This document shows positions 7,619 to 58,364 of a stretch of DNA of 64,000 nucleotides, piece after piece (the stretch's first letter is position 1; the number at the start of each line of letters is the position of its first letter). The notes under the pieces were generated by a model. The model was not told where the DNA came from and made no database searches. It saw only the letters and a program-made list of their open reading frames with translations. Where the stretch lies: the NCBI RefSeq assembly GCF_028686475.1, contig NZ_JAQUCA010000006.1:69648-133647 (forward strand), in the 5' to 3' direction. The stretch comes from Giesbergeria sp. GTDB taxonomy: Bacteria > Pseudomonadota > Gammaproteobacteria > Burkholderiales > Burkholderiaceae_C. The position numbers and the translations under genes were made by a program.

Positions 7619-7752
7619 GGATGGGTGCTGGAACGGTTATATCTTTGCGTAGCGCGATGTGGCAACGGCTTGCGAGTCTATGCCATACTGCCCGCAAAAT
7701 AATGCCCCCTTGCAATGCCCACACTGGCCAGCTCTTTGCTTGCACCACCAAC

Positions 7753-9552
7753 ATGCCCGCCCACCCCTCTGCCAAGCTTGATTTTTCTGACCCGCACGCT
7801 GGCCCCACAGCGCCACGCTTACGTCATGTGTTTGCCAAACCACGGCAGGTCTTGAGCGCCCACCATGCAGCAGAGGTGCCGGGGCTACTCAACGCGGTAC
7901 AACAGGCGGCGCAGCAGGGCGCTTGGTGCTTGGGTTACTTGCGCTACGAGGCCGCCGCCGCTTTTGATGCAGCTTTACAAACGCACCCAGCCAGCGGCCC
8001 GCTGGCATGGTTTGCGCTATATGAGCCGCCCCCCCTTTGGCCAGCGCTAGATGGCAAAATCAGCACAACCAGCCCTTCATCGCCTGATTTGCACTGGCAG
8101 CAAACCCTCAGTCGCCCCAGCTTTGCTGCCGCCGTGCAGCAAATTCAGCAAGCGATTGCAGCAGGCGAGTATTACCAAGTCAACTACACCACACAATTGC
8201 AAGCCGCCCTCAAGCAACCGGCGCAACCGGCAGCAGCGCTGGCCCTGTTTGCTGCCTTGCAACGCGCGCAACCGGGCGGCTATGCGCTTTATTTGGATAC
8301 TGGGGTTGAACAAATTTTGTCGGTATCCCCCGAGTTGTTTTTCGATTGGCACCAACAAACCGCTGGCGGTCAGATACTGGCCCGCCCCATGAAAGGCACC
8401 GCGCCGCGCGGCAACACCCCAGAGCAAGATGCTGCCCAAGCTGCCGCTTTGCGTGCCAGCCCAAAAGAGCGCGCCGAAAACGTGATGATTGTCGATTTAC
8501 TGCGTAATGACCTATCACGCATGGCCAGTCCCGGCAGCGTGCAAGTGCCACGCTTGTTCCATACCGAAGCCTTGCCCAGCGTCTGGCAGATGACCTCGGA
8601 CGTGCAAGCCCGCACCCGCGCTGGCACCACGCTGGCCCAAGTCTTTGCTGCGCTGTTTCCGTGTGGCTCTATCACCGGAGCGCCCAAAGTGCGCGCCATG
8701 CAAGCCATCAAACAACTAGAGACTACGCCGCGTGGCATTTATTGTGGTGCCTTGGGTCTGGTGCGCCCAGACGGCGCGGGCGGTATCCGCGCCACCTTCA
8801 ATGTACCGATTCGCACCGTGGTGCTGCAAGGCCAGCACGCCTACTGTGGCATTGGCAGTGGCATCACCGCCAGCGCCCAAGCCGGGGCAGAATGGCAAGA
8901 ATGGCGTTACAAACGCACTTTTGTGGAGCAAGCCAGCATGGCTTTTGATTTGTTAGAAACCTTGGCCCTAGAGCAAGGCCAATGGCGGCACGGCCACGCG
9001 CATTTGGCCCGCTTGCACGGTGCTGCACAGTATTTTTCTTACCCTTGGGATGCCGCCCAAGTGCAACAATGCCTCAACGATTTGGCCCAAGCCCACCCGA
9101 CAGGCCGTTGGCGCGTGCGCGTGCTGCTCAATGCCCAAGGACAAGCCAGCGCCCAAGCCTTTCCCTTAGAACCCACTCCGGCCAAAGTGCAATTGCAATT
9201 GGCATCCCAGCACTTGCCCGAGGCCGATAGCCCCTTTGTGCGTTACAAAACCACCCGCCGAGGACATTACGATGCCTTTGCGCCCACCGTTGCGGGCATC
9301 TACGACACCATCTTGTACAACGAGGCCGAGCAAATCACCGAATGCACCCGTGGCAACCTGGCCATGCTGTTGGATGGTGAGTGGGTCACACCGGCATTGG
9401 ACTGTGGCTTGTTGCCGGGCGTGGGCCGTGCCGTAGCCTTGCGCGATGGGCGCTTGCGCGAAGCGGTAGTGCGCCGCCAAGATGTGCCGCGCATCCAAGC
9501 CTGGGCCTTTTTGAACAGCCTGCGCGGCTGGATAGCTGCCGATTTGGTCTAG
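7753..9552 (+). CDS. pabB: Aminodeoxychorismate synthase component I fused to ADC lyase/aminotransferase IV (PabB-PabC)
   Basis: SPELFF, PMKGT, KERAENVMIVDLLRNDL, FPCGSITGAPK; C-terminal YKTTRR, ECTRGN and GLLPG. Start moved to the ATG at 7753. Confidence 0.88.
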   Translation: MPAHPSAKLDFSDPHAGPTAPRLRHVFAKPRQVLSAHHAAEVPGLLNAVQQAAQQGAWCLGYLRYEAAAAFDAALQTHPASGPLAWFALYEPPPLWPALDGKISTTSPSSPDLHWQQTLSRPSFAAAVQQIQQAIAAGEYYQVNYTTQLQAALKQPAQPAAALALFAALQRAQPGGYALYLDTGVEQILSVSPELFFDWHQQTAGGQILARPMKGTAPRGNTPEQDAAQAAALRASPKERAENVMIVDLLRNDLSRMASPGSVQVPRLFHTEALPSVWQMTSDVQARTRAGTTLAQVFAALFPCGSITGAPKVRAMQAIKQLETTPRGIYCGALGLVRPDGAGGIRATFNVPIRTVVLQGQHAYCGIGSGITASAQAGAEWQEWRYKRTFVEQASMAFDLLETLALEQGQWRHGHAHLARLHGAAQYFSYPWDAAQVQQCLNDLAQAHPTGRWRVRVLLNAQGQASAQAFPLEPTPAKVQLQLASQHLPEADSPFVRYKTTRRGHYDAFAPTVAGIYDTILYNEAEQITECTRGNLAMLLDGEWVTPALDCGLLPGVGRAVALRDGRLREAVVRRQDVPRIQAWAFLNSLRGWIAADLV

Positions 9553-49376: not shown

Positions 49377-50159
49377 TTAGATACTGAACATGGCGGCTGT
49401 CAGGACAAAATCCAAGCCCAACACCGCCAACGAGGCCATCACCACGGTGCGCGTGGTGGCGCGCGATACCCCTTCGGGGGTGGGCTTGGCGGTATAGCCT
49501 TGCAGCAAGGCCACAAAGGTGACGGTGATGCCAAAAGCCACACTTTTGACCACGCTGTTACCCAAGTCGCTGAATACATCCACGCCGCCCTGCATTTGGC
49601 TCCAAAACGCGCCCGCATCTAGCCCCAGCATGGGCACGGCCACCGCCCAGCCACCCACTACACCCACCGCATTGAACACCAGCGATAGCACCGGCATGGC
49701 AATCACACCGCCCCAAAAACGCGGGGCCAAAATGCGCTGCACGGGGTCCACGGCCATCATCTCCATTGCGCTGAGCTGCTCCCCGGCGCGCATCAGGCCA
49801 ATTTCTGCCGTGAGCGAAGTGCCCGCACGCCCAGCAAACAGCAGCGCGGTAATCACCGGCCCGAGTTCGCGCAGCAAACTAAGCGCCACCAACTGGCCTA
49901 AAGCCTCGGTGGAGCCAAAATCTTGCAAGGTGTAGTAACCCTGCAAGGCCATGACAAAACCCACAAACAAGCCCGATACCGCAATAATGGCGAGTGAATA
50001 GTTGCCCAAGAAATGCACTTGGTCGCGCACCAAGCCGAATCGGGTCAAACTGGCGGGCAACCATTGCAACAAACGGCCAAACAGTCGTGCCGCTTGGCCT
50101 ATATCGGCCAGCTGGCGGCGCGCCGCCAAGCCCACATCGGCAGGACGGTACCAACTCAT
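49377..50159 (-). CDS. mlaE: Permease MlaE
   Basis: LLRELGPVITALLFAGRAG, EGVSRATTRTVV. Confidence 0.95.
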   Translation of the reverse strand: MSWYRPADVGLAARRQLADIGQAARLFGRLLQWLPASLTRFGLVRDQVHFLGNYSLAIIAVSGLFVGFVMALQGYYTLQDFGSTEALGQLVALSLLRELGPVITALLFAGRAGTSLTAEIGLMRAGEQLSAMEMMAVDPVQRILAPRFWGGVIAMPVLSLVFNAVGVVGGWAVAVPMLGLDAGAFWSQMQGGVDVFSDLGNSVVKSVAFGITVTFVALLQGYTAKPTPEGVSRATTRTVVMASLAVLGLDFVLTAAMFSI

Positions 50160-50998
50160 GCGCGGCCTCCACTGGGGCCAATGGGGCCAAAATCTTGCGC
50201 CGCATCTGGCCCCGGATAGTGGAACGGCACCGGCCCAGTGGGCAGGGCATGGACAAACTGGTGTACCAGCGGGTCAGTGCTGTGGCGCACCTGCTCCGGG
50301 GTGCCTTGGGCGGCAATCGTGCCCGGCCCCAAAATCACCACATGGTCGGCAATTTGGAAGGTGATTTCTACATCGTGCGAGACGATGATGGTGGTCAGGC
50401 CCATCGCATCATTGAGCTGGCGAATCAACTGCGCCGCCGTGCCGAGGGAAATGGGGTCTAAACCGGCAAAAGGCTCGTCGTACATCACCAATTCGGGGTC
50501 CAGGGCGATGGAGCGCGCCAGCGCCACGCGCCGCGCCATACCGCCCGAAATTTGTGCGGGCAGCAAATCGCGCGCACCGCGCAAGCCTACCGCGTGCAAC
50601 TTCATCAGCACAATATCCCGAATCAAGGCTGGCGGTAAATTGGTGTGTTCGCGCAGTGGAAAAGCCACATTGTCAAACACCGTCATGTCGGTAAACAAGG
50701 CCCCAAACTGGAACAACATGCCCATGCGGCGGCGGGCTGCATACAGGGCAGCAGTGTCCATCTGGCCCACATCTTGGCCATCGAACAGCACCTGCCCTTG
50801 CTGGGCTTGTTGCTGGCCACCCACCAAGCGCAGCACCGTGGTTTTGCCGCCCCCCGAAGCCCCCATGATGGCCGTGACTTTGCCACGCGGCACTGCCAAG
50901 GACAGGCCACGCAAAATGGGTCGCTCGCCATAGCTGAAATGCACATCGCGCAGCTCGACAAACGGGGCAACAGAAGAAATAGGGGAAGATGAAAGCAT
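50156..50998 (-). CDS. mlaF: ABC ATPase MlaF
   Basis: GASGGGKT, QFGALFTD, ISGGM, YDEPFAGLDP. Confidence 0.95.
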   Translation of the reverse strand: MLSSSPISSVAPFVELRDVHFSYGERPILRGLSLAVPRGKVTAIMGASGGGKTTVLRLVGGQQQAQQGQVLFDGQDVGQMDTAALYAARRRMGMLFQFGALFTDMTVFDNVAFPLREHTNLPPALIRDIVLMKLHAVGLRGARDLLPAQISGGMARRVALARSIALDPELVMYDEPFAGLDPISLGTAAQLIRQLNDAMGLTTIIVSHDVEITFQIADHVVILGPGTIAAQGTPEQVRHSTDPLVHQFVHALPTGPVPFHYPGPDAAQDFGPIGPSGGRA

Positions 50999-51141
50999 GA
51001 AACAGCACAACGCAAGCCGTAATCATAGGCGCTAACGGCTGGCCTTGTATGGCATTAGGTTTTATCGGTGCAGCAGCAGCTTGTTGGCTATGATGCTGCT
51101 CTTTGCTTCGCCCCTGCGCCCGGCTACGGCAAAGGTTTTTC

Positions 51142-51601: not shown

Positions 51602-52012
51602 CTAATTGGCGTGGTTGACCAAGTATTCGAGCGCTTTAACGCGGTCGGCGGTCACGTTCATCTTGCACTCAGTGCTACCCACGATACTGAGGTCAAGATT
51701 GCCCGCATAGGTAATGGGATAAAGCTCACAGTTTAAGTCGCGAAACCGTATCCAGGTACGTTGGACGGCTTGGAGTTCCTTTTTATTCTCAGGGTTATTA
51801 TCCATTTTTATGATGGTCTTATAGGCCTCGTTTAAGCGGACATCCTGGCGTTTGAGTTCTGCGCTGACACATTTATCGATTTCTGTCCGGTCACTATCGG
51901 CCTTGTGCATACAAGCGTCGAATTTTTGTGACAGATTGCTTTCTTGGGCGCTGGCTGCCAAAGGCAGAGCGGCGGCAAAAATCAGGGTGATTTGAAGGAG
52001 CAAGGGTTTCAT
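51602..52012 (-). CDS. DUF1311/LprI family secreted protein, copy 1
   Basis: Signal peptide; C...C...RLNEAY...QRTWIRFRDLNC...C...R pattern. Confidence 0.85.
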   Translation of the reverse strand: MKPLLLQITLIFAAALPLAASAQESNLSQKFDACMHKADSDRTEIDKCVSAELKRQDVRLNEAYKTIIKMDNNPENKKELQAVQRTWIRFRDLNCELYPITYAGNLDLSIVGSTECKMNVTADRVKALEYLVNHAN

Positions 52013-52049
52013 GGACTTGCCTTTTAAGGCTGGATGGGGCTTCAGACGG

Positions 52050-52445
52050 TCACTCAATGAAATTTTCAAGCTCTTTGGCACGCTCGGCGGTCATCCGCAT
52101 CGTGCAATCACTGGCATTGACCGCGGCACTGGTGCCCCCGTCGGGGTCGTGGTAAAAGTCACAGTTTAAATCGCGAAACTTTATCCAGACCCGTTGGGTG
52201 GCTTGGAGTTGTTTTTTACGCTCAGGGGTTTGGTCAGATGCCATCAGCGTCTTATAGGCTTTGTTTAAGCGGGCATCTTGGCGTTTGAGTTCTGCGTCGG
52301 TGCAGTCCATCATTTCTATCGTGACACCACCGGACTTGTCCATGCAAGCGCTGAATTTTTTAGACAGATTGCTGTCTTGGGCGCTGGCCGCCAAAGGCAT
52401 GGCGGCGGCCAAAGCAAGGGTAATGTGGAGGAAAAGGGGTTTCAT
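52050..52445 (-). CDS. DUF1311/LprI family secreted protein, copy 2
   Basis: Signal peptide; ACMDKSGG.T..M.DC...RLNKAY...QRVWIKFRDLNC...C...RAKEL. Confidence 0.88.
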   Translation of the reverse strand: MKPLFLHITLALAAAMPLAASAQDSNLSKKFSACMDKSGGVTIEMMDCTDAELKRQDARLNKAYKTLMASDQTPERKKQLQATQRVWIKFRDLNCDFYHDPDGGTSAAVNASDCTMRMTAERAKELENFIE

Positions 52446-52620
52446 TAGTTTGCGCGTGAAACCTCGGCATTCATGTCAAGGAGGTAGAGCGCGGAACGCC
52501 TAGCGCTCCTTGCTTTGGGCCGAACCTGCTCACGTCCGTTTAATAGCCCGGTTGACAGAAATGAGTGCAAGGCTTTTCACCACGGCTGGGCCTTGCGGCT
52601 CTGCCCGTAAGTTCCGACCT

Positions 52621-54210
52621 TCAGGTGGTAGTTGACCTGGTCAGGGCAGGAAATTGGCTTTGGCGCTCCCCCAAATGAAACACACTCACCACTTGGGTTA
52701 AAGCATCCGCTTGGCTGTGCAAAGATTCAGCTGCGGTGGCGGCTTGCTCCACCATCGCGGCATTTTGCTGTGTGGCCACTTCCATTTGCTCGATGGCTAA
52801 ATGCACTTGGTCGATGCCGGCACTTTGTTCGGTGCTGGCGGCGGTAATCTCGCTCATGATGTCGGTCACGCGGCTGATGCTGGCCACAATTTGCTCCATC
52901 GTTTGGCCAGCTTGTTCTACCAAATGGCTGCCGTTTTCTACCTTGTCCACCGAGTCGCTAATCAAGGCTTTGATTTCTTTGGCGGCCTCGGCACTGCGCC
53001 CGGCCAAACTACGCACCTCAGAGGCCACCACGGCAAAACCCCGCCCTTGCTCGCCCGCGCGCGCTGCCTCTACCGCCGCATTGAGGGCCAAGATATTGGT
53101 TTGAAAGGCAATCCCATCAATCACGCTGATGATGTCAACAATCTTTTTCGACGAAGTGTTGATAGAGCGCATGGTGTCCACCACCTGCGCCACCACCTCG
53201 CCGCCTTGGGTAGCCACCTGCGAGGCCGATTGCGCTAATTGATTGGCTTGGCGCGCATTGTCGGCATTTTGCTTGACGGTGCCGGTCAGGGTATCCATCG
53301 AGGCCGCGGTTTCTTCTAGCGATGTAGCCTGCTGCTCGGTGCGCGCAGACAGCTCCAAGTTGCCAGCGGCAATTTGGCTCGATGCTGTGGCGATGGTATC
53401 GGTGCCGATGCGAACTTGCTGCACCGTGTGCAGCAAACTGGCGTTCATGTCTTTCAGAGCCTGCATCAGCTGGCCGGTTTCGTCTTGCGATTCGACGGCA
53501 ATGTCCATCGTCAAATCACCGCTGGCCACATGGCGCGCCACGGCCACCGCCTCGCGCAGTGGGCGGGTGATGCTGCGCGTGGTGGCCCAAGCCAGCACAC
53601 TGCCCACCAGCACCGCCACGATAGCGGCCAAGTACAGCGTCCAGCTCAGGCGCTGGCTGGCGGCTCGCGCCTGTGCGCGCACCTGCTGCTCGGCGGCCTG
53701 GTGTAACTCAACCAATTTGTTGATTTCGGCCAGCAACTGCCGAAACAGCGGATCTATCTGTTTGGACAGAATCTGGGCCACACCCTCTGTATTGAAGGCC
53801 AGCGCCTGACCGATGGCATCGGCGCGCAGGCCAGCCAAACCTTTTTCTAACTCGGCCATACGGGCAAAAATAGCTTTTTCTTCTTCGCTGGTGCCCAAAT
53901 CAATTAACTTTTGGCGCGCTTGGGCGTACAGCTGGCTATGCTCTTTGAGCCGCGCCTCTTCTTTGTTCATCTCACTGACTTCAGAATGCAAGCCAATACT
54001 GCGAATGGCCACCACTGCTTCGAGTTGCTCGGATTTCATGGTGGTCGTCCATTGCACTTTGGCGCTGGCCAGCTCCAGCCCGTCAAACAACTGCTGCTCG
54101 TTGCGCGCGGTGCTGATGTTGACCAATACCACCACGGCAATGAGCAGAGCCAAGACAATGCCAAAGCCGATTTTGAGGCGCGTACCGATACGCAGGTCAC
54201 TGATTTTCAT
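52621..54210 (-). CDS. Methyl-accepting chemotaxis protein with a four-helix-bundle-like periplasmic domain
   Basis: Two TM helices, [38 protein letters not shown]. Confidence 0.95.
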
Positions 54211-54350
54211 AGGAAAAAGTTTCGCTAAGAAAGAAAGGCAGCAGTCAGCGGTGGAAACTGCCCAGAGGCCACTGCCCTCAACCAGCAGAGGCAAGAAAGC
54301 GCTGGCACCGCGCGCACGGGCAGCACTAGGCACTAAGAGACTAGGGCGCG

Positions 54351-54809
54351 TTACTTATAGATGCCGACACCAATCAGCACATCATCGACTTTTTCAACAT
54401 AGGTGGATTTGGGTTCGACCACTTTGGTGATAGCGTTGGGCCACTTGTAATCGACCCAGCCTTTGCCGCTTTTTTGCGCGGTGTCAATAAAGCCTTTAAC
54501 GATGAACTTGCCATCAGCGTCTTTGATTTCGAGCAAGTTTTTGCCAATCAGCTTGGCGTTGGAACCGTGGCATTTATTATTGCCTAGCATGTCGTAGCAC
54601 ATGACATACAGGTCTTTTTGCACAAAAGCGCCCTTGGGGTTGTTGAATTCGGCAAACGCCTTTTCTGGCCCACTGGACTTGATGAGTGCAACCCCCTTCT
54701 TGACCATTGCCATCGCCTCATCGGCAGTCCCTTTTTCCGAAGCAACAGCACTGAAGGCCAGAGTGAGGGCAGTGACACCCACTGCTACATGCTTGAGCAT
54801 AGTTTTCAC
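54351..54809 (-). CDS. Stand-alone periplasmic single Cache (sCache_2-like) protein
   Basis: Signal peptide; LYVMCY...H...GKN...D..GK...GWVDYKWP...K.TYV; no TM or output domain. Confidence 0.85.
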
Positions 54810-55031
54810 AGAAATTTATCCTTTTCTTGGTTTCAGACGCTGCCGTTTTGCACGCTATCTTGTGCCCATTGCACGACACAGCCATGACAAGCCGAACAGC
54901 TTACAGACTCCGCAGTATCCCACTGCGGCCTGTCTGGAACTTGACGACTGCACCTGCACCGTGCAGTCTGTGCCAAATTAATAGCGATTTTTGTAGCTAA
55001 AAAATGTACTATGCCCAAAACTTAAAAACCT

Positions 55032-56381
55032 ATGAAAAATCCATTGCCCCATCCACTCAAAATAGGCCGTCCACTGGGCGGCTTGCTCTTCGCGCTGCTT
55101 GCCTGCACATCGGCCCAAGCCGAAGCAGATGAGGGAGCTACCGCCAGAAGGCTGAAATTTTCTGGCTTTGGCACGCTGGGACTGACCCACCACAACAACC
55201 GCGACGTAGGTGTCATTTCGTCGTTTGGGCAAGAGTCACCCGCCCATGACGGGTTTTCTGAAAACTTGGACAGCGTATTAGGGGCGCAACTCAATTGGCA
55301 GGCGGCCGATGACACCTCGTTGGTGCTGCAAGCCGTGGGCCGCGCCGGAGAGGGCATGAAGCCCCAAGTACGTATGGGTTATGTGCGCCAGCAATTTGGC
55401 CAAAATACGTCGGTGCGCTTGGGCCGCTACCGCAGCGCCTTGTACTTTGATGCCGATGTGACCGAAATTGGCTATGCCAACCTCACGGCGCGCAAACCGC
55501 TGCCGGTATATTGGATTAGCAACAACGTAGCAGCGATTGACGGCATTGATGTGCAATGGCACCACAGCAGCGGCAATGCGGGCTGGCTGCTCAATGTGTA
55601 TGCAGGCGAGAGCAATACCCAGCAAAAATTTCCCTTAATCCAAGGCGATACCAAACTCAGAGACATCCGAGGCTTTGCCCTGACTTATATGCTGTCGAAT
55701 GTCTCTTTGCGTGCTTCCAGAACCTGGGTCGGCAAATACGCCGTGCAATCGTCGCGGCAGGTGGAGCAAATGAACGCTGGCTTGCAGCAGGCCGCTGGCG
55801 GCTTGGCAGCGTTGGCAGCAACGCCGGTGCTGCCAACACCAGTGCGGGCCAGTCTGGCCAGCAAGGCCAGTGAAATCGCCAGCTATGCCAATCCGTTTGA
55901 TAACCAGCCCATTTACACCAGCTTGGGCTTTAACGCCAATTTTGACAACTGGTCAGTTATGGGCGGCTGGGTAGGTTTTGATTCGCAATCGGCCATGATT
56001 GGCAAATACAACAGTTACAGCGTCACGGTGGGCCGTAGCATCGGCAATATCACGCCCTATATTGAGCTGGCGTACCAGCGCCGCTCCAATCCTATCTTCA
56101 ATACCAATGCCTTAGGCCCCACGGGCCTGCATCCGCAGCTGGATATGGGGCTGGCCCAACTACAAGGAGCATTCTCCGAAGCCGCCCAGTTTGCTGATTT
56201 TTCTATGCGCTCAGCCAGTGTAGGGATGCGCTGGGATGTGCAAAAAGACATGGCCCTCAAGCTGCAATACGACCTCATCAAAACCCCAAGCCCCTACCGT
56301 GCTGGCGGGTTGGCCACCAGCACCTTACCCATCAACAACAAAGTGCATCTGGTTTCTGTGGTGTTCGACTTCATTTTCTAA
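55032..56381 (+). CDS. Outer-membrane beta-barrel (porin-like) protein
   Basis: Signal peptide, FSGFGTLG, alternating beta strands, G.RWD...MALKLQYD, terminal DFIF. Confidence 0.8.
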   Translation: MKNPLPHPLKIGRPLGGLLFALLACTSAQAEADEGATARRLKFSGFGTLGLTHHNNRDVGVISSFGQESPAHDGFSENLDSVLGAQLNWQAADDTSLVLQAVGRAGEGMKPQVRMGYVRQQFGQNTSVRLGRYRSALYFDADVTEIGYANLTARKPLPVYWISNNVAAIDGIDVQWHHSSGNAGWLLNVYAGESNTQQKFPLIQGDTKLRDIRGFALTYMLSNVSLRASRTWVGKYAVQSSRQVEQMNAGLQQAAGGLAALAATPVLPTPVRASLASKASEIASYANPFDNQPIYTSLGFNANFDNWSVMGGWVGFDSQSAMIGKYNSYSVTVGRSIGNITPYIELAYQRRSNPIFNTNALGPTGLHPQLDMGLAQLQGAFSEAAQFADFSMRSASVGMRWDVQKDMALKLQYDLIKTPSPYRAGGLATSTLPINNKVHLVSVVFDFIF

Positions 56382-56391
56382 GGACACAGCG

Positions 56392-56817
56392 ATGAAACAC
56401 CTTCACATTGCATTATTAAGCTGCTGGATGGCTTCTGGTGCCTGGGCACAAAGCGCCTTGGTGGTTATCGCCAACCCAAGCGTGGCCATAGAAAAAATAG
56501 ATACCCATCAGGTTACGCAAATTTTTCTCAAGCAAATTCAGACTTGGCCCGATGGCAAGGCGATACAGCCCATCGACATCAAAGAAGGCTCCCCGCTACG
56601 CACCGAGTTTTACAGCAAAATTACAGGGCGCAGTCCGGGGCAAATGCGCGCCTATTGGGCGCGTCAGGCGTTTACGGGCATGGGTTTTGCCCCCAAAGAG
56701 TTTGCCACTGCCGACGATGTGAGCAAAGCCGTTCAGACTACGCCGGGAGCGATTGGCTACATCGACAAGAAAAGTGCCTTGGGCACGGCCAAAATCGTCT
56801 TGCAACCCAACGAATAA
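56392..56817 (+). CDS. Small periplasmic binding-protein-like domain (often annotated as phosphate ABC substrate-binding)
   Basis: Signal peptide, VVIANP, YWARQAFTG...P, V...PGAIGYI; 141 aa, about one PBP lobe. Confidence 0.75.
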   Translation: MKHLHIALLSCWMASGAWAQSALVVIANPSVAIEKIDTHQVTQIFLKQIQTWPDGKAIQPIDIKEGSPLRTEFYSKITGRSPGQMRAYWARQAFTGMGFAPKEFATADDVSKAVQTTPGAIGYIDKKSALGTAKIVLQPNE

Positions 56818-56885
56818 GCAAAAAAGCTGCCAACACTTGCCTAAGCAAGCACTGGCGGCTAAGGTAGGCCGGAGGGTGTAGCGGC

Positions 56886-58364
56886 TTAACGCGGCAAGCT
56901 CGATTGGCCCATCAAAAAGCTATCGACGGCACGCGCCGCTTGGCGGCCCTCACGAATCGCCCACACCACCAAAGATTGACCCCGGCGAATATCACCGGCC
57001 GCAAACACCTTGGGCACATTGGTGGCGTAGCCGCCTTGGTCTTCGGTGCTGGCGCGGGCGTTGCCGCGCGCATCTTTGTCAATGCCAAAGGCATCCAACA
57101 CCGCTGCTACCGGACTGACAAAGCCCATTGCCAGCAACACCAAATCGGCCGGGTAGTGCTTTTCGGTGCCTGCAATTTCTAGCAATTTGCCGTCTTTGAA
57201 CTCGACTTGCACCGTGGTTAAGCCTTTGACCTTGCCCTTTTCGCCCACAAACTCTTTGGTAGAAATAGCAAACTCGCGCACGCAACCTTCGTCGTGGCTG
57301 GAGCTGGTACGCAGCTTGAGCGGCCAATAAGGCCACACCAGTGGTTTGTTTTCTTGCTCGGGTGGCATGGGCATGACTTCAAATTGGGTCACGCTGGCCG
57401 CGCCGTGGCGGTTGCTGGTGCCAACACAGTCGCTGCCGGTGTCGCCACCGCCAATCACAATCACATGCTTGCCATCGGCGCGCAGTTGGCCTTTGAGCTT
57501 GTCACCGCCATTGACTTTGTTTTGCTGCGGCAAGAACTCCATCGCAAAGTGGATGCCGTCCAAGTCGCGGCCCGGCACGGGCAAATCGCGCGATTGTTCA
57601 GCACCGCCGGTGAGCAGCACGGCATCAAACTCGGCTTGCAGTTGCGCCGGGCTGATGGTCTCTTTGGCCCAGTTGGTGACTTTGCTGCCTTTGCCCAAAC
57701 CTTCTTTCGGGTCGGCCACCAGCACGCTGGTGCGGATGGTCACGCCTTCGGCTTCTAGTTGTTTGGCGCGGCGGTCAATGTGCGACTTTTCCAGCTTGAA
57801 ATCGGGGATGCCATAGCGCAGCAGGCCACCGATACGGTCGTTCTTCTCGAACAAAGTCACATCGTGACCCACACGGGCCAGTTGCTGTGCAGCGGCCATA
57901 CCGGCAGGGCCAGCCCCCACCACAGCCACTTTTTTGCCGGTTTTTTGCGCGGCGGGTTGCGGCTGCACCCAGCCATTCTCCCAGGCTTTGTCGATGATGG
58001 CGTGCTCAATACTCTTGATGCCGATAGGCGCAGCGTTGATATTGACCACGCAAGCGGCCTCGCACGGGGCGGGGCAGATGCGGCCTGTGAACTCGGGGAA
58101 GTTGTTGGTGCTGTGCAGCACCTCGATGGCGTTTTTCCAATCGCCGTGGTACACCAAATCATTGAAGTCTGGAATGATGTTGTTGACCGGGCAACCGTTG
58201 TTGCAAAACGGCGTGCCGCAGTCCATGCAGCGTGCGCCTTGCACTTTGGCTTGTTCCGGTGTCAGGGCAATGACGAACTCTTTATAGTTCTTGATACGCT
58301 CGGACACGGGCAGGTAGCCCTCTTCGATGCGCTCGTATTCTAAGAAGCCAGTGGTCTTTCCCAT
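56886..58364 (-). CDS. gltD: Glutamate synthase small subunit
   Basis: [50 protein letters not shown]. Confidence 0.97.

Follow-up and report, generated by a model that had tools for sequence, protein, structure and literature searches.

A 64,000-nucleotide stretch of the Giesbergeria sp. genome (contig NZ_JAQUCA010000006.1, positions 69,648 to 133,647; hereafter the window) carries four envelope genes around one divergent spacer: on the minus strand, genes for a free periplasmic Cache protein and an MCP (methyl-accepting chemotaxis protein), and on the plus strand, genes for a porin-like outer-membrane barrel and a small, single-lobe relative of the phosphate-binding protein PstS, here called the mini-PBP (from periplasmic binding protein, PBP). 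We consider it probable that these genes represent two independently conserved sensory modules placed back to back, namely a Cache-MCP operon and an orphan cassette of barrel and half-PBP that is, by family, a signalling accessory. An earlier, sequence-only reading had treated the four genes as a candidate for one undescribed trans-envelope sensing system, and our results support it in part. Its account of the locus was correct throughout: an open reading frame (ORF) listing and direct reading of the sequence confirmed the four genes, their strands, the 222-bp spacer and the gap of 10 nt between the barrel stop codon (56381) and the ATG of the mini-PBP gene (56392).

Table 1. Coordinates of the four genes and adjoining features, as positions in the window
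Feature	Position	Strand	Remarks
MCP gene	52621..54210	-	529 aa from family-typical start MKISDLR
sCache_2 protein gene	54351..54809	-	152 aa; signal peptide; upstream gene of Cache-MCP operon
Divergent intergenic spacer, 222 bp	54810..55031	.	Read directly; common to both operons
16-strand porin-like barrel gene	55032..56381	+	449 aa; signal peptide
Mini-PBP (single-lobe PstS-like) gene	56392..56817	+	141 aa; signal peptide
GC-rich hairpin between convergent mini-PBP and gltD genes	56829..56856	-	Terminator-like; 12 pairs; T-run on minus strand

Evidence for the cassette as a unit comes from two samples. A one-genome-per-species scan gave a Burkholderiales-type set of 42 cassette loci (L005-L046), which we annotated with our own ORF caller, family hidden Markov models (HMMs) and Pfam checks. 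A metagenome scan seeded with the Marinobacter/Halomonas-type clade gave 80 loci with 77 mini-PBP genes, a gammaproteobacterial/marine-type sample. At every locus of the genome set (42/42), the mini-PBP gene had the barrel gene directly upstream and on its own strand, mostly with gaps of -1 to 20 nt. A barrel gene adjoined 69 of the 77 metagenome mini-PBP genes on the same strand, and 32 of the 35 metagenome loci with more than 3.2 kb on both sides had one; in some gamma-type loci it lay directly downstream of the mini-PBP gene instead of upstream. The barrel and mini-PBP are thus obligately paired, far beyond chance. Tandem barrel/mini-PBP pairs were seen at five metagenome loci (L066, L075, L098, L101, L111), sometimes with one MCP for both, and their presence at single loci implies repeated local duplication of the cassette. 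An exhaustive profile search with the mini-PBP returned 10,275 clusters (50% identity) at E ≤1e-3 and 6,740 at E ≤1e-10, and nearly all of the best 150 clusters were 132-165 aa long. No published description of the barrel/mini-PBP cassette was found in literature searches. Hence, the cassette family is very widespread and apparently undescribed.

In the Burkholderiales-type genomes, the gene following the cassette most often encodes a HAMP-SpoIIE (PP2C) phosphatase (30/42 loci). A STAS protein is encoded within four genes in 26 of the 42 loci and a Na/Pi symporter (PF02690) within five genes in 18, and some loci have a Xan_ur_permease-type transporter in place of the symporter. About 300 aa of the phosphatase form a conserved periplasmic region without annotation, which matched no Pfam family and no PDB sequence, and an RsbW-like HATPase_c_2 kinase is either fused to the phosphatase or encoded apart. 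We rejected these phosphatases as SiaA orthologues: only the HAMP-PP2C part matches, and scores against the SiaA and SiaD equivalogs (78-87 bits versus a cut-off of 700, and 148 versus 290, respectively) were far too low. An MCP neighbour occurs in this genome set only at the window's own orthologous locus. At several loci (L011:13298-14902, L019:13362-14981, and also L023, L026 and L033), the STAS gene is followed by a gene for a Na/Pi symporter (~540 aa) or a Xan_ur_permease-type protein (~600 aa), and the partner switch there may control a transporter rather than a sigma factor. Very large BTAD + AAA_16 regulators (1230-1290 aa) directly adjoin some cassette-PP2C operons (L010:4754-8452, L029:4748-8533, and equivalents in Duganella and Roseateles).

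More distant members accompany other transducers. Marinobacter encodes an MCP, the barrel and the mini-PBP in one operon, of which the 397-aa middle gene product matches the barrel HMM at 3e-56. Halomonas encodes a mini-PBP, a putative barrel of 407 aa and a dCache_3-PAS-GGDEF-EAL protein, and in a metagenome-assembled genome (MAG) of the Granulosicoccaceae a HAMP-GGDEF-EAL gene lies directly upstream of the barrel/mini-PBP pair. An MCP gene was located within two genes of the cassette, on the same strand and in any order, in 21 of the 35 long-flank metagenome loci. HAMP was found in all cassette transducers scanned except the Halomonas protein. A sensor domain of about 170 aa, as yet without annotation, is common to the cassette-linked MCPs; it is homologous to the N-terminus of the cassette-linked HAMP-GGDEF-EAL protein (hhalign probability 98%), and sub-threshold matches of this domain to TarH, 4HB_MCP_1 and CHASE3 argue that it is a divergent four-helix bundle. 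Together, these contexts establish that the cassette normally shares its operon with a transducer of the inner membrane bearing a periplasmic domain (PP2C/RsbW-like kinase/STAS, MCP or GGDEF-EAL), and that the output domains are interchangeable across cassette operons, sometimes behind a common sensor domain. The sequence-only reading had described such pairs as recurring beside MCPs and cyclases, and at the family level (Marinobacter, Halomonas and the 21 metagenome loci) that statement holds.

ATP-binding cassette (ABC) transport genes were surveyed across the same contexts. No ABC ATPase was encoded within three genes in 43 Burkholderiales-type loci, nor in the Pfam-annotated contexts. Seven ABC ATPase matches occurred near the 77 metagenome mini-PBP genes; two that were scanned are ABC-F proteins and two others, of about 950 aa, lie on the opposite strand, so that the seven are probably not importers. 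No ABC importer genes were found in or beside the four genes of the window, where the nearest ABC genes are mlaFE (49377-51010), an unrelated system. Most homologues therefore sit with signalling neighbours and away from ABC transporters, in line with what the earlier reading had expected of a neighbourhood survey.

The mini-PBP itself falls short of PstS in several respects. Its match to Pfam PBP_like_2 (26.5 bits, cut-off 27) covers only positions 92-189 of the 267 in the profile, and NCBIfam PstS models score 14-21 bits against cut-offs of more than 200. An AlphaFold2 (AF2) model (pLDDT 90.9) matched only PstS proteins in Foldseek, with a TM-score of ~0.65 when normalised by the query and ~0.36 when normalised by the target. 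Since these alignments span about 120 of about 260 PstS residues, the mini-PBP is a single lobe, as the earlier reading had supposed, and in a profile alignment it falls on lobe II of PstS. In E. coli PstS, lobe II contributes the phosphate ligands Arg135 and Ser139-Gly140-Thr141. The PstS anion loop R-x-x-G-S-G-S/T is replaced by K-E-G-S-P-L-R in the mini-PBP, which stands opposite R-A-A-G-S-G-S-R of Streptococcus pneumoniae PstS1: Arg has become Lys (a variable position in the family), Gly has become Pro and Thr/Ser has become Leu, leaving only the Ser commonly kept. Moreover, residues 79-99 form a family-specific invariant helix/loop (GRSPGQMRAYWARQAFTGMGF); the family segment GRSPGQxRAYWARQAFTGMGFPP is nearly invariant among mini-PBPs and is not present in PstS. 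By the two-lobe fold, the lobe II ligands, linkage to pstCAB and the Pfam gathering score, the protein is not a PstS. These comparisons identify it as a half-domain of PstS origin, in which most of the canonical phosphate ligands are gone and a new conserved surface has appeared. Some mini-PBPs occur as tandem doubles (P0286-P0291, 250-290 aa), and two mini-PBP domains are found on the C-terminus of a BlaR1/M56 sensor-protease (P0284, 744 aa). Such fusions suggest that the mini-PBP could be an extracytoplasmic sensor element that acts in pairs.

The AF2 model of the barrel monomer (pLDDT 87.1) has 16 long strands, and the 33-residue loop between strands 5 and 6 (residues 135-167) contains short helices and occupies an L3-like constriction position. 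The two helical inserts described earlier are real in this model, as a helical hairpin (residues 242-283) and a helix (residues 368-387), and would fall in external loops L5 and L7, respectively, if general-porin topology applies. The top 50 PDB matches in Foldseek were all general porins (E 6e-13 to 3e-11), including VhChiP, OmpC/F, OmpK36, PorB and Omp32 of a related Comamonadaceae species. Across 25 homologues with identities as low as 43%, L5 (54-55 residues) and L7 (40 residues) did not vary in length; in a distant barrel clade, both loops are shorter. The window barrel had no Pfam or NCBIfam match, even at E 10, while several homologues, including the Giesbergeria paralogue, carry Porin_4 (PF13609). 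The idea of an OprP/OprO-like phosphate porin found no support, given the lack of a Porin_O_P match and the general porins that fill the Foldseek list. OmpS of Alcanivorax and PahS of Cycloclasticus were rejected as homologues; both are TonB-dependent receptors and are analogues only. In comparison with general trimeric porins (OmpF/OmpC, Omp32 of Delftia acidovorans, PorB), the barrel shares the 16 strands, the L3-like loop and conserved basic residues, but is about 100 residues longer, has a fixed-length hairpin L5 of 55 residues and a helix-bearing L7 of 40 residues, and is always encoded with a mini-PBP.

An ordinary porin fold with basic residues and a constriction loop, next to a protein of PstS ancestry, could also describe an uptake device, in which a solute-selective porin and an anion (e.g., phosphate) carrier or chaperone feed a Na/Pi symporter or an NCS2-type permease. 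The PP2C/STAS proteins would then merely regulate the transporter, and the copy in the window would amount to one more porin/carrier pair, with no relation to chemotaxis. The symporters and Xan_ur_permease-type proteins near many genome cassettes, and the 14 of 35 metagenome cassettes that have no nearby transducer, would fit such a role. We nonetheless consider it improbable. A single lobe cannot enclose a ligand, of the PstS lobe II ligands only the Ser is commonly kept and the Gly of the SGT loop is Pro, gammaproteobacterial cassettes pair with MCP or GGDEF-EAL genes and no transporter, and no transporter adjoins the window copy. Regulation by a Pho box was also rejected: upstream of the 42 barrels, the best matches to the consensus CTGTCATNNNNCTGTCAT reached 8-11 of 14 positions, with no conserved site. 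Only ancestry and the Na/Pi symporter neighbours suggest phosphate as the cassette ligand; the degenerate site speaks against it, and so does the lack of Pho boxes. The earlier expectation that this 'phosphate-binding' protein does not feed transport is supported by both the ABC survey and the loss of most anion-binding residues.

On the other side of the spacer, the Cache-MCP module is an independent and far commoner two-gene operon, separate from the cassette. The Cache protein scores 68 bits against Pfam sCache_2 (cut-off 25) and has no further domain or membrane segment beyond its N-terminal signal peptide; among solved structures, Cache sensor domains of MCPs (4exo, 2qhk, 4k08) come nearest to it. 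Characterised sCache_2 domains normally sit in membrane receptors, whereas the window protein is a free secreted domain without transmembrane (TM) segment or output domain. The MCP has the layout TM1, a four-helix bundle (4HB) periplasmic domain of ~160 aa, TM2, HAMP and an MCP signalling domain, with Pfam scores that all exceed their cut-offs (MCPsignal 192 bits, HAMP 43.5 bits, 4HB_MCP_1 35 bits). Its longest ORF begins further out, at GTG 54333 (52621-54333), and the start at 54210 is in register with orthologues. In the same database, 1098 homologues of the Cache protein were found (~151 aa; 63-93% identity among the best 120 listed) compared with 125 of the mini-PBP, making the former an order of magnitude commoner. 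We inspected five contexts outside the window clade, from Hydrogenophaga, Herbaspirillum, two metagenome lineages and one Burkholderiaceae MAG (L047, L049, L050, L136, L138). The MCP lay directly downstream of the Cache gene in all five, and neither a barrel nor a mini-PBP gene was beside them. The Burkholderiaceae MAG (L136) even has the window's AdoMet_dc-mla synteny, and the divergent neighbour of its Cache gene is a non-secreted ORF, not a barrel. In addition, the ligand-binding region of the window MCP is 50-58% identical to those of MCPs from Cache-MCP operons that lack the cassette. Because the operon recurs without the cassette and with this sensor region conserved, the natural periplasmic partner of the window MCP is the Cache protein, whose most likely role is to bind a small ligand and hand it to the 4HB domain of the MCP encoded downstream. 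Such a handover would amount to indirect-binding chemoreception. The two-gene operon of free sCache_2 and 4HB-MCP is widespread in Burkholderiales in its own right, and we found no published description of it.

These results bear directly on the proposal that all four genes form one trans-envelope chemosensory system, with a cue passing through the barrel to the mini-PBP, perhaps also the Cache protein, and on to the MCP, and with the spacer co-regulating both operons. We regard this as unlikely. The family is habitually linked in cis to a transducer, MCPs are the commonest partner in the gammaproteobacterial/marine-type sample, Marinobacter provides a precedent for an MCP operon, and the sole transducer near the orphan cassette is the window MCP, whose sensor belongs to the same fold class as the divergent four-helix bundles of cassette-linked MCPs. 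Against this, once HAMP was trimmed, hhalign detected no homology between the window MCP sensor and the cassette-linked sensor domains, and no link emerged among the three domains compared, from the window MCP, the cassette-linked MCPs and the N-terminus of PP2C (probabilities of 0.2-10% without HAMP). The window operon contains no transducer of its own, and the nearby MCP is divergently transcribed, whereas all cognate cassette/transducer cases are on the same strand. The head-to-head arrangement of Cache-MCP and cassette is kept in L001/L007, L006, L139 and L140-142 at 78-88% barrel identity, but these form a single shallow clade, where the synteny of the flanking housekeeping genes is conserved to the same degree. 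Orphan cassettes are common, the Cache-MCP operon is unchanged in genomes without the cassette, and the window was chosen for its adjacency, which inflates the apparent significance of that adjacency. Hence, the four genes are two separate conserved pairs rather than one system, with most genome cassettes going with PP2C and not with an MCP, and the Cache protein belongs to the MCP operon rather than to the barrel. Of the earlier claim of an undescribed system, the cassette family stands as apparently undescribed, while the four-gene unit is conserved only in the one clade. On these sequence comparisons the specific four-gene relay is more likely absent than present, and some functional link between the window cassette and the adjacent MCP is a possibility with the balance against it.

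One possible rearrangement at the locus would also separate the two modules. In the closest Simplicispira MAG (L005:1-830), an HNH-endonuclease-like ORF, and not the Cache gene, lies upstream of the barrel, which speaks against the single system. The 115 bp before that barrel are the reverse complement (88% identity) of window positions 52440-52553, in the spacer that separates the MCP 3' end from the LprI gene. This layout suggests a rearrangement, or a misassembly at the contig end, that parted the cassette from Cache-MCP. In Giesbergeria L001, an enlarged spacer between Cache and barrel contains a 102-aa ORF (7669-7977) with no Pfam match and no counterpart in the window.

Little in the spacer points to joint control. 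No consensus sigma-70 promoter was found in its 222 bp, and a Pho-box-like site at 54873-54890 (three mismatches) is at chance level (four in the window versus 3.2 expected). Neither a Pho box nor any other regulatory signal common to both operons was found. Metatranscriptome contigs from a biofilm and another community (X25, X26) cover all four genes at similar low depth, which would fit a single system but cannot establish co-regulation. One such contig crosses the whole divergent spacer (54403-55042) and may represent read-through or antisense RNA, or DNA carry-over. As these are assembled contigs with possible DNA carry-over, we did not use them as evidence of co-regulation.

The orphan state of the window cassette can be explained by its origin. 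Giesbergeria and two Simplicispira MAGs carry two cassettes each: copy 1 is MCP-adjacent or orphan, and copy 2 is followed by PP2C-kinase-STAS genes with a convergent Hemerythrin-GGDEF gene. A distance tree built from the barrels makes the orphan clade, including the window, sister to the PP2C(+GGDEF)-linked paralogues of the same genera, and this position points to a lineage-specific duplication of just the two-gene cassette. The tree thus indicates that the window cassette is probably an orphan, lineage-specific duplicate of the PP2C-linked copy in the Giesbergeria/Simplicispira clade.

Several points weigh against the reading of two independent modules. The barrel tree is a simple neighbour-joining distance tree, and the gene calls in the surveyed loci are heuristic. 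The head-to-head position is found in at least six related lineages, including the window. Since this arrangement has been kept and the family uses MCPs elsewhere, the adjacency may be functional, and 'two independent modules' may be too conservative a description. Moreover, with 14 of the 35 long-flank metagenome cassettes lacking a nearby transducer, the cassette may also have a transducer-independent role.

How the cassette might act can be sketched from its parts. The barrel would admit or sense an external cue at the outer membrane. The half-PBP, unable to enclose a ligand alone, would work as a dimer or against the surface of a partner, and would shuttle between, or bridge, the barrel and the periplasmic domain of the transducer, thereby setting transducer output. 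The tandem fusions, together with a motif that is invariant regardless of transducer type, argue that the half-PBP has a constant contact with the barrel or a common ligand. The orphan copy could feed the window MCP (possible, though not what we expect), serve a PP2C system elsewhere, or act alone. We tentatively put forward, at somewhat less than even confidence, that the cassette is a widespread, hitherto undescribed and interchangeable trans-envelope input module for MCPs, PP2C/STAS switches and cyclic di-GMP enzymes, that the half-PBP completes its ligand site, or its signal, only when bound to itself, the barrel or the transducer, and that the Giesbergeria/Simplicispira copy has been rewired to a Cache-using MCP, giving this MCP two soluble periplasmic inputs.

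The invariant motif, if the constant contact is the barrel, also suits a different role, in which the cassette reports the state of the envelope: the barrel would hold the mini-PBP, or release it to the transducer upon perturbation of the outer membrane or periplasm or upon surface contact. The degenerate ligand site, the rigid length of the external helical loops and the biofilm-type outputs among the partners (a SiaA-like PP2C switch with convergent Hemerythrin-GGDEF, and GGDEF-EAL) are compatible with such reporting. This role would rest on analogy to YfiB-YfiR-YfiN or RcsF and outer-membrane proteins, as neither YfiB/YfiR nor RcsF is homologous to the cassette proteins; the MCP partners point to chemical gradients more than to stress, and the porin fold, with its normal constriction loop, to the passage of solutes. 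We give it a low probability, and retain the signalling accessory next to an independent Cache-MCP operon as the preferred reading.

The closest named relatives are the Simplicispira MAGs and Giesbergeria, and the window sequence was found in freshwater, wastewater and bioreactor metagenomes. N-terminal signal peptides were read from the sequence in the Cache protein, barrel and mini-PBP, that is, in all three non-MCP proteins. The terminator-like hairpin beyond the mini-PBP gene is the end of the two-gene barrel/mini-PBP operon, after which gltD (56886-58364) lies on the opposite strand, in a gltD-gltB arrangement convergent with the cassette. The flank on the MCP side comprises a pair of LprI genes, the gene for an AdoMet decarboxylase and mlaFEDAC. 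The tandem LprI/DUF1311 (lysozyme-inhibitor-like) genes (51602-52445, minus strand) overlap by 32 nt and are missing in the otherwise syntenic Giesbergeria L001 and metagenome loci L139 and L140, making them a window-specific insertion between the AdoMet decarboxylase and MCP genes.

The interest of these results lies in the family-level cassette rather than in a four-gene relay in the window. Only a handful of systems for indirect sensing via PBPs are known, all of which borrow complete substrate-binding proteins (SBPs) from transport. The cassette differs in having a dedicated half-SBP, no link to an ABC importer and, always, its own outer-membrane channel. If it is a signalling accessory, it would explain the input of many orphan MCPs, PP2C switches and GGDEF-EAL proteins whose periplasmic domains lack annotation, would extend chemoreception by a tier in the outer membrane, and would correct a widespread mis-annotation as 'phosphate ABC transporter substrate-binding protein'. 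Cultured carriers include Marinobacter, Halomonas, Duganella, Paraburkholderia lacunae, Burkholderia guangdongensis and Giesbergeria sinuosa. A second case of a soluble co-receptor, testable separately, is offered by the operon of free sCache and MCP.

Indirect sensing is exemplified by PstS-CtpL phosphate chemotaxis in Pseudomonas aeruginosa, MBP-Tar and RBP/GBP-Trg (PMC8050422). The likeness to PstS-CtpL lies in a PBP_like_2 periplasmic protein, an MCP sensor of helical-bundle type and the (here predicted) use of a binding protein as signal input, instead of or alongside a role in transport. In contrast, PstS has two lobes, a full phosphate site and pstCAB, whereas the mini-PBP is a single lobe with a degenerate anion loop and lacks ABC genes; the cassette also adds an obligately co-encoded porin-like barrel, and its contact with an MCP is here a prediction from gene context, after the pattern of SBP-dependent receptors such as Tar-MBP, CtpL-PstS and LuxPQ, where the binding protein, once loaded with ligand, docks onto the periplasmic domain of the receptor. 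In the hydrocarbon-sensing PahS/PahP/PahK-PahR system of Cycloclasticus, an outer-membrane protein, a PBP and an inner-membrane sensor are co-encoded, and a relay has been proposed (PMC10570129). There, the 687-aa PahS is a TonB-dependent receptor with 22 strands, PahP is a classic two-lobe SBP and the output is a histidine kinase, compared with the 16-strand porin-type barrel and half-PBP of the cassette, to which they have no sequence relationship.

Partner switches of the SiaABCD and RsbU-RsbW-RsbV types (PMC7647112) resemble the commonest Burkholderiales-type partner of the cassette, HAMP-PP2C with an RsbW-like kinase and STAS. The diguanylate cyclase beside the partner switch in Giesbergeria and Simplicispira is a further likeness to Sia. 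The periplasmic domain of the partner PP2C, however, is unrelated to that of the Sia system and unannotated, and the window contains no partner-switch genes. The P. aeruginosa PAO1 sia locus is not known to carry a barrel or a mini-PBP. YfiBNR (TpbB) controls a diguanylate cyclase through YfiB, an OmpA-like lipoprotein, and YfiR, whose fold is unrelated to the mini-PBP. Its three tiers (an outer-membrane part, a small soluble periplasmic protein and an inner-membrane transducer with HAMP and a periplasmic domain) resemble the cassette in logic only. By analogy, then, the cassette would work like MBP-Tar, PstS-CtpL and PahS/PahP/PahK while belonging to none of them.

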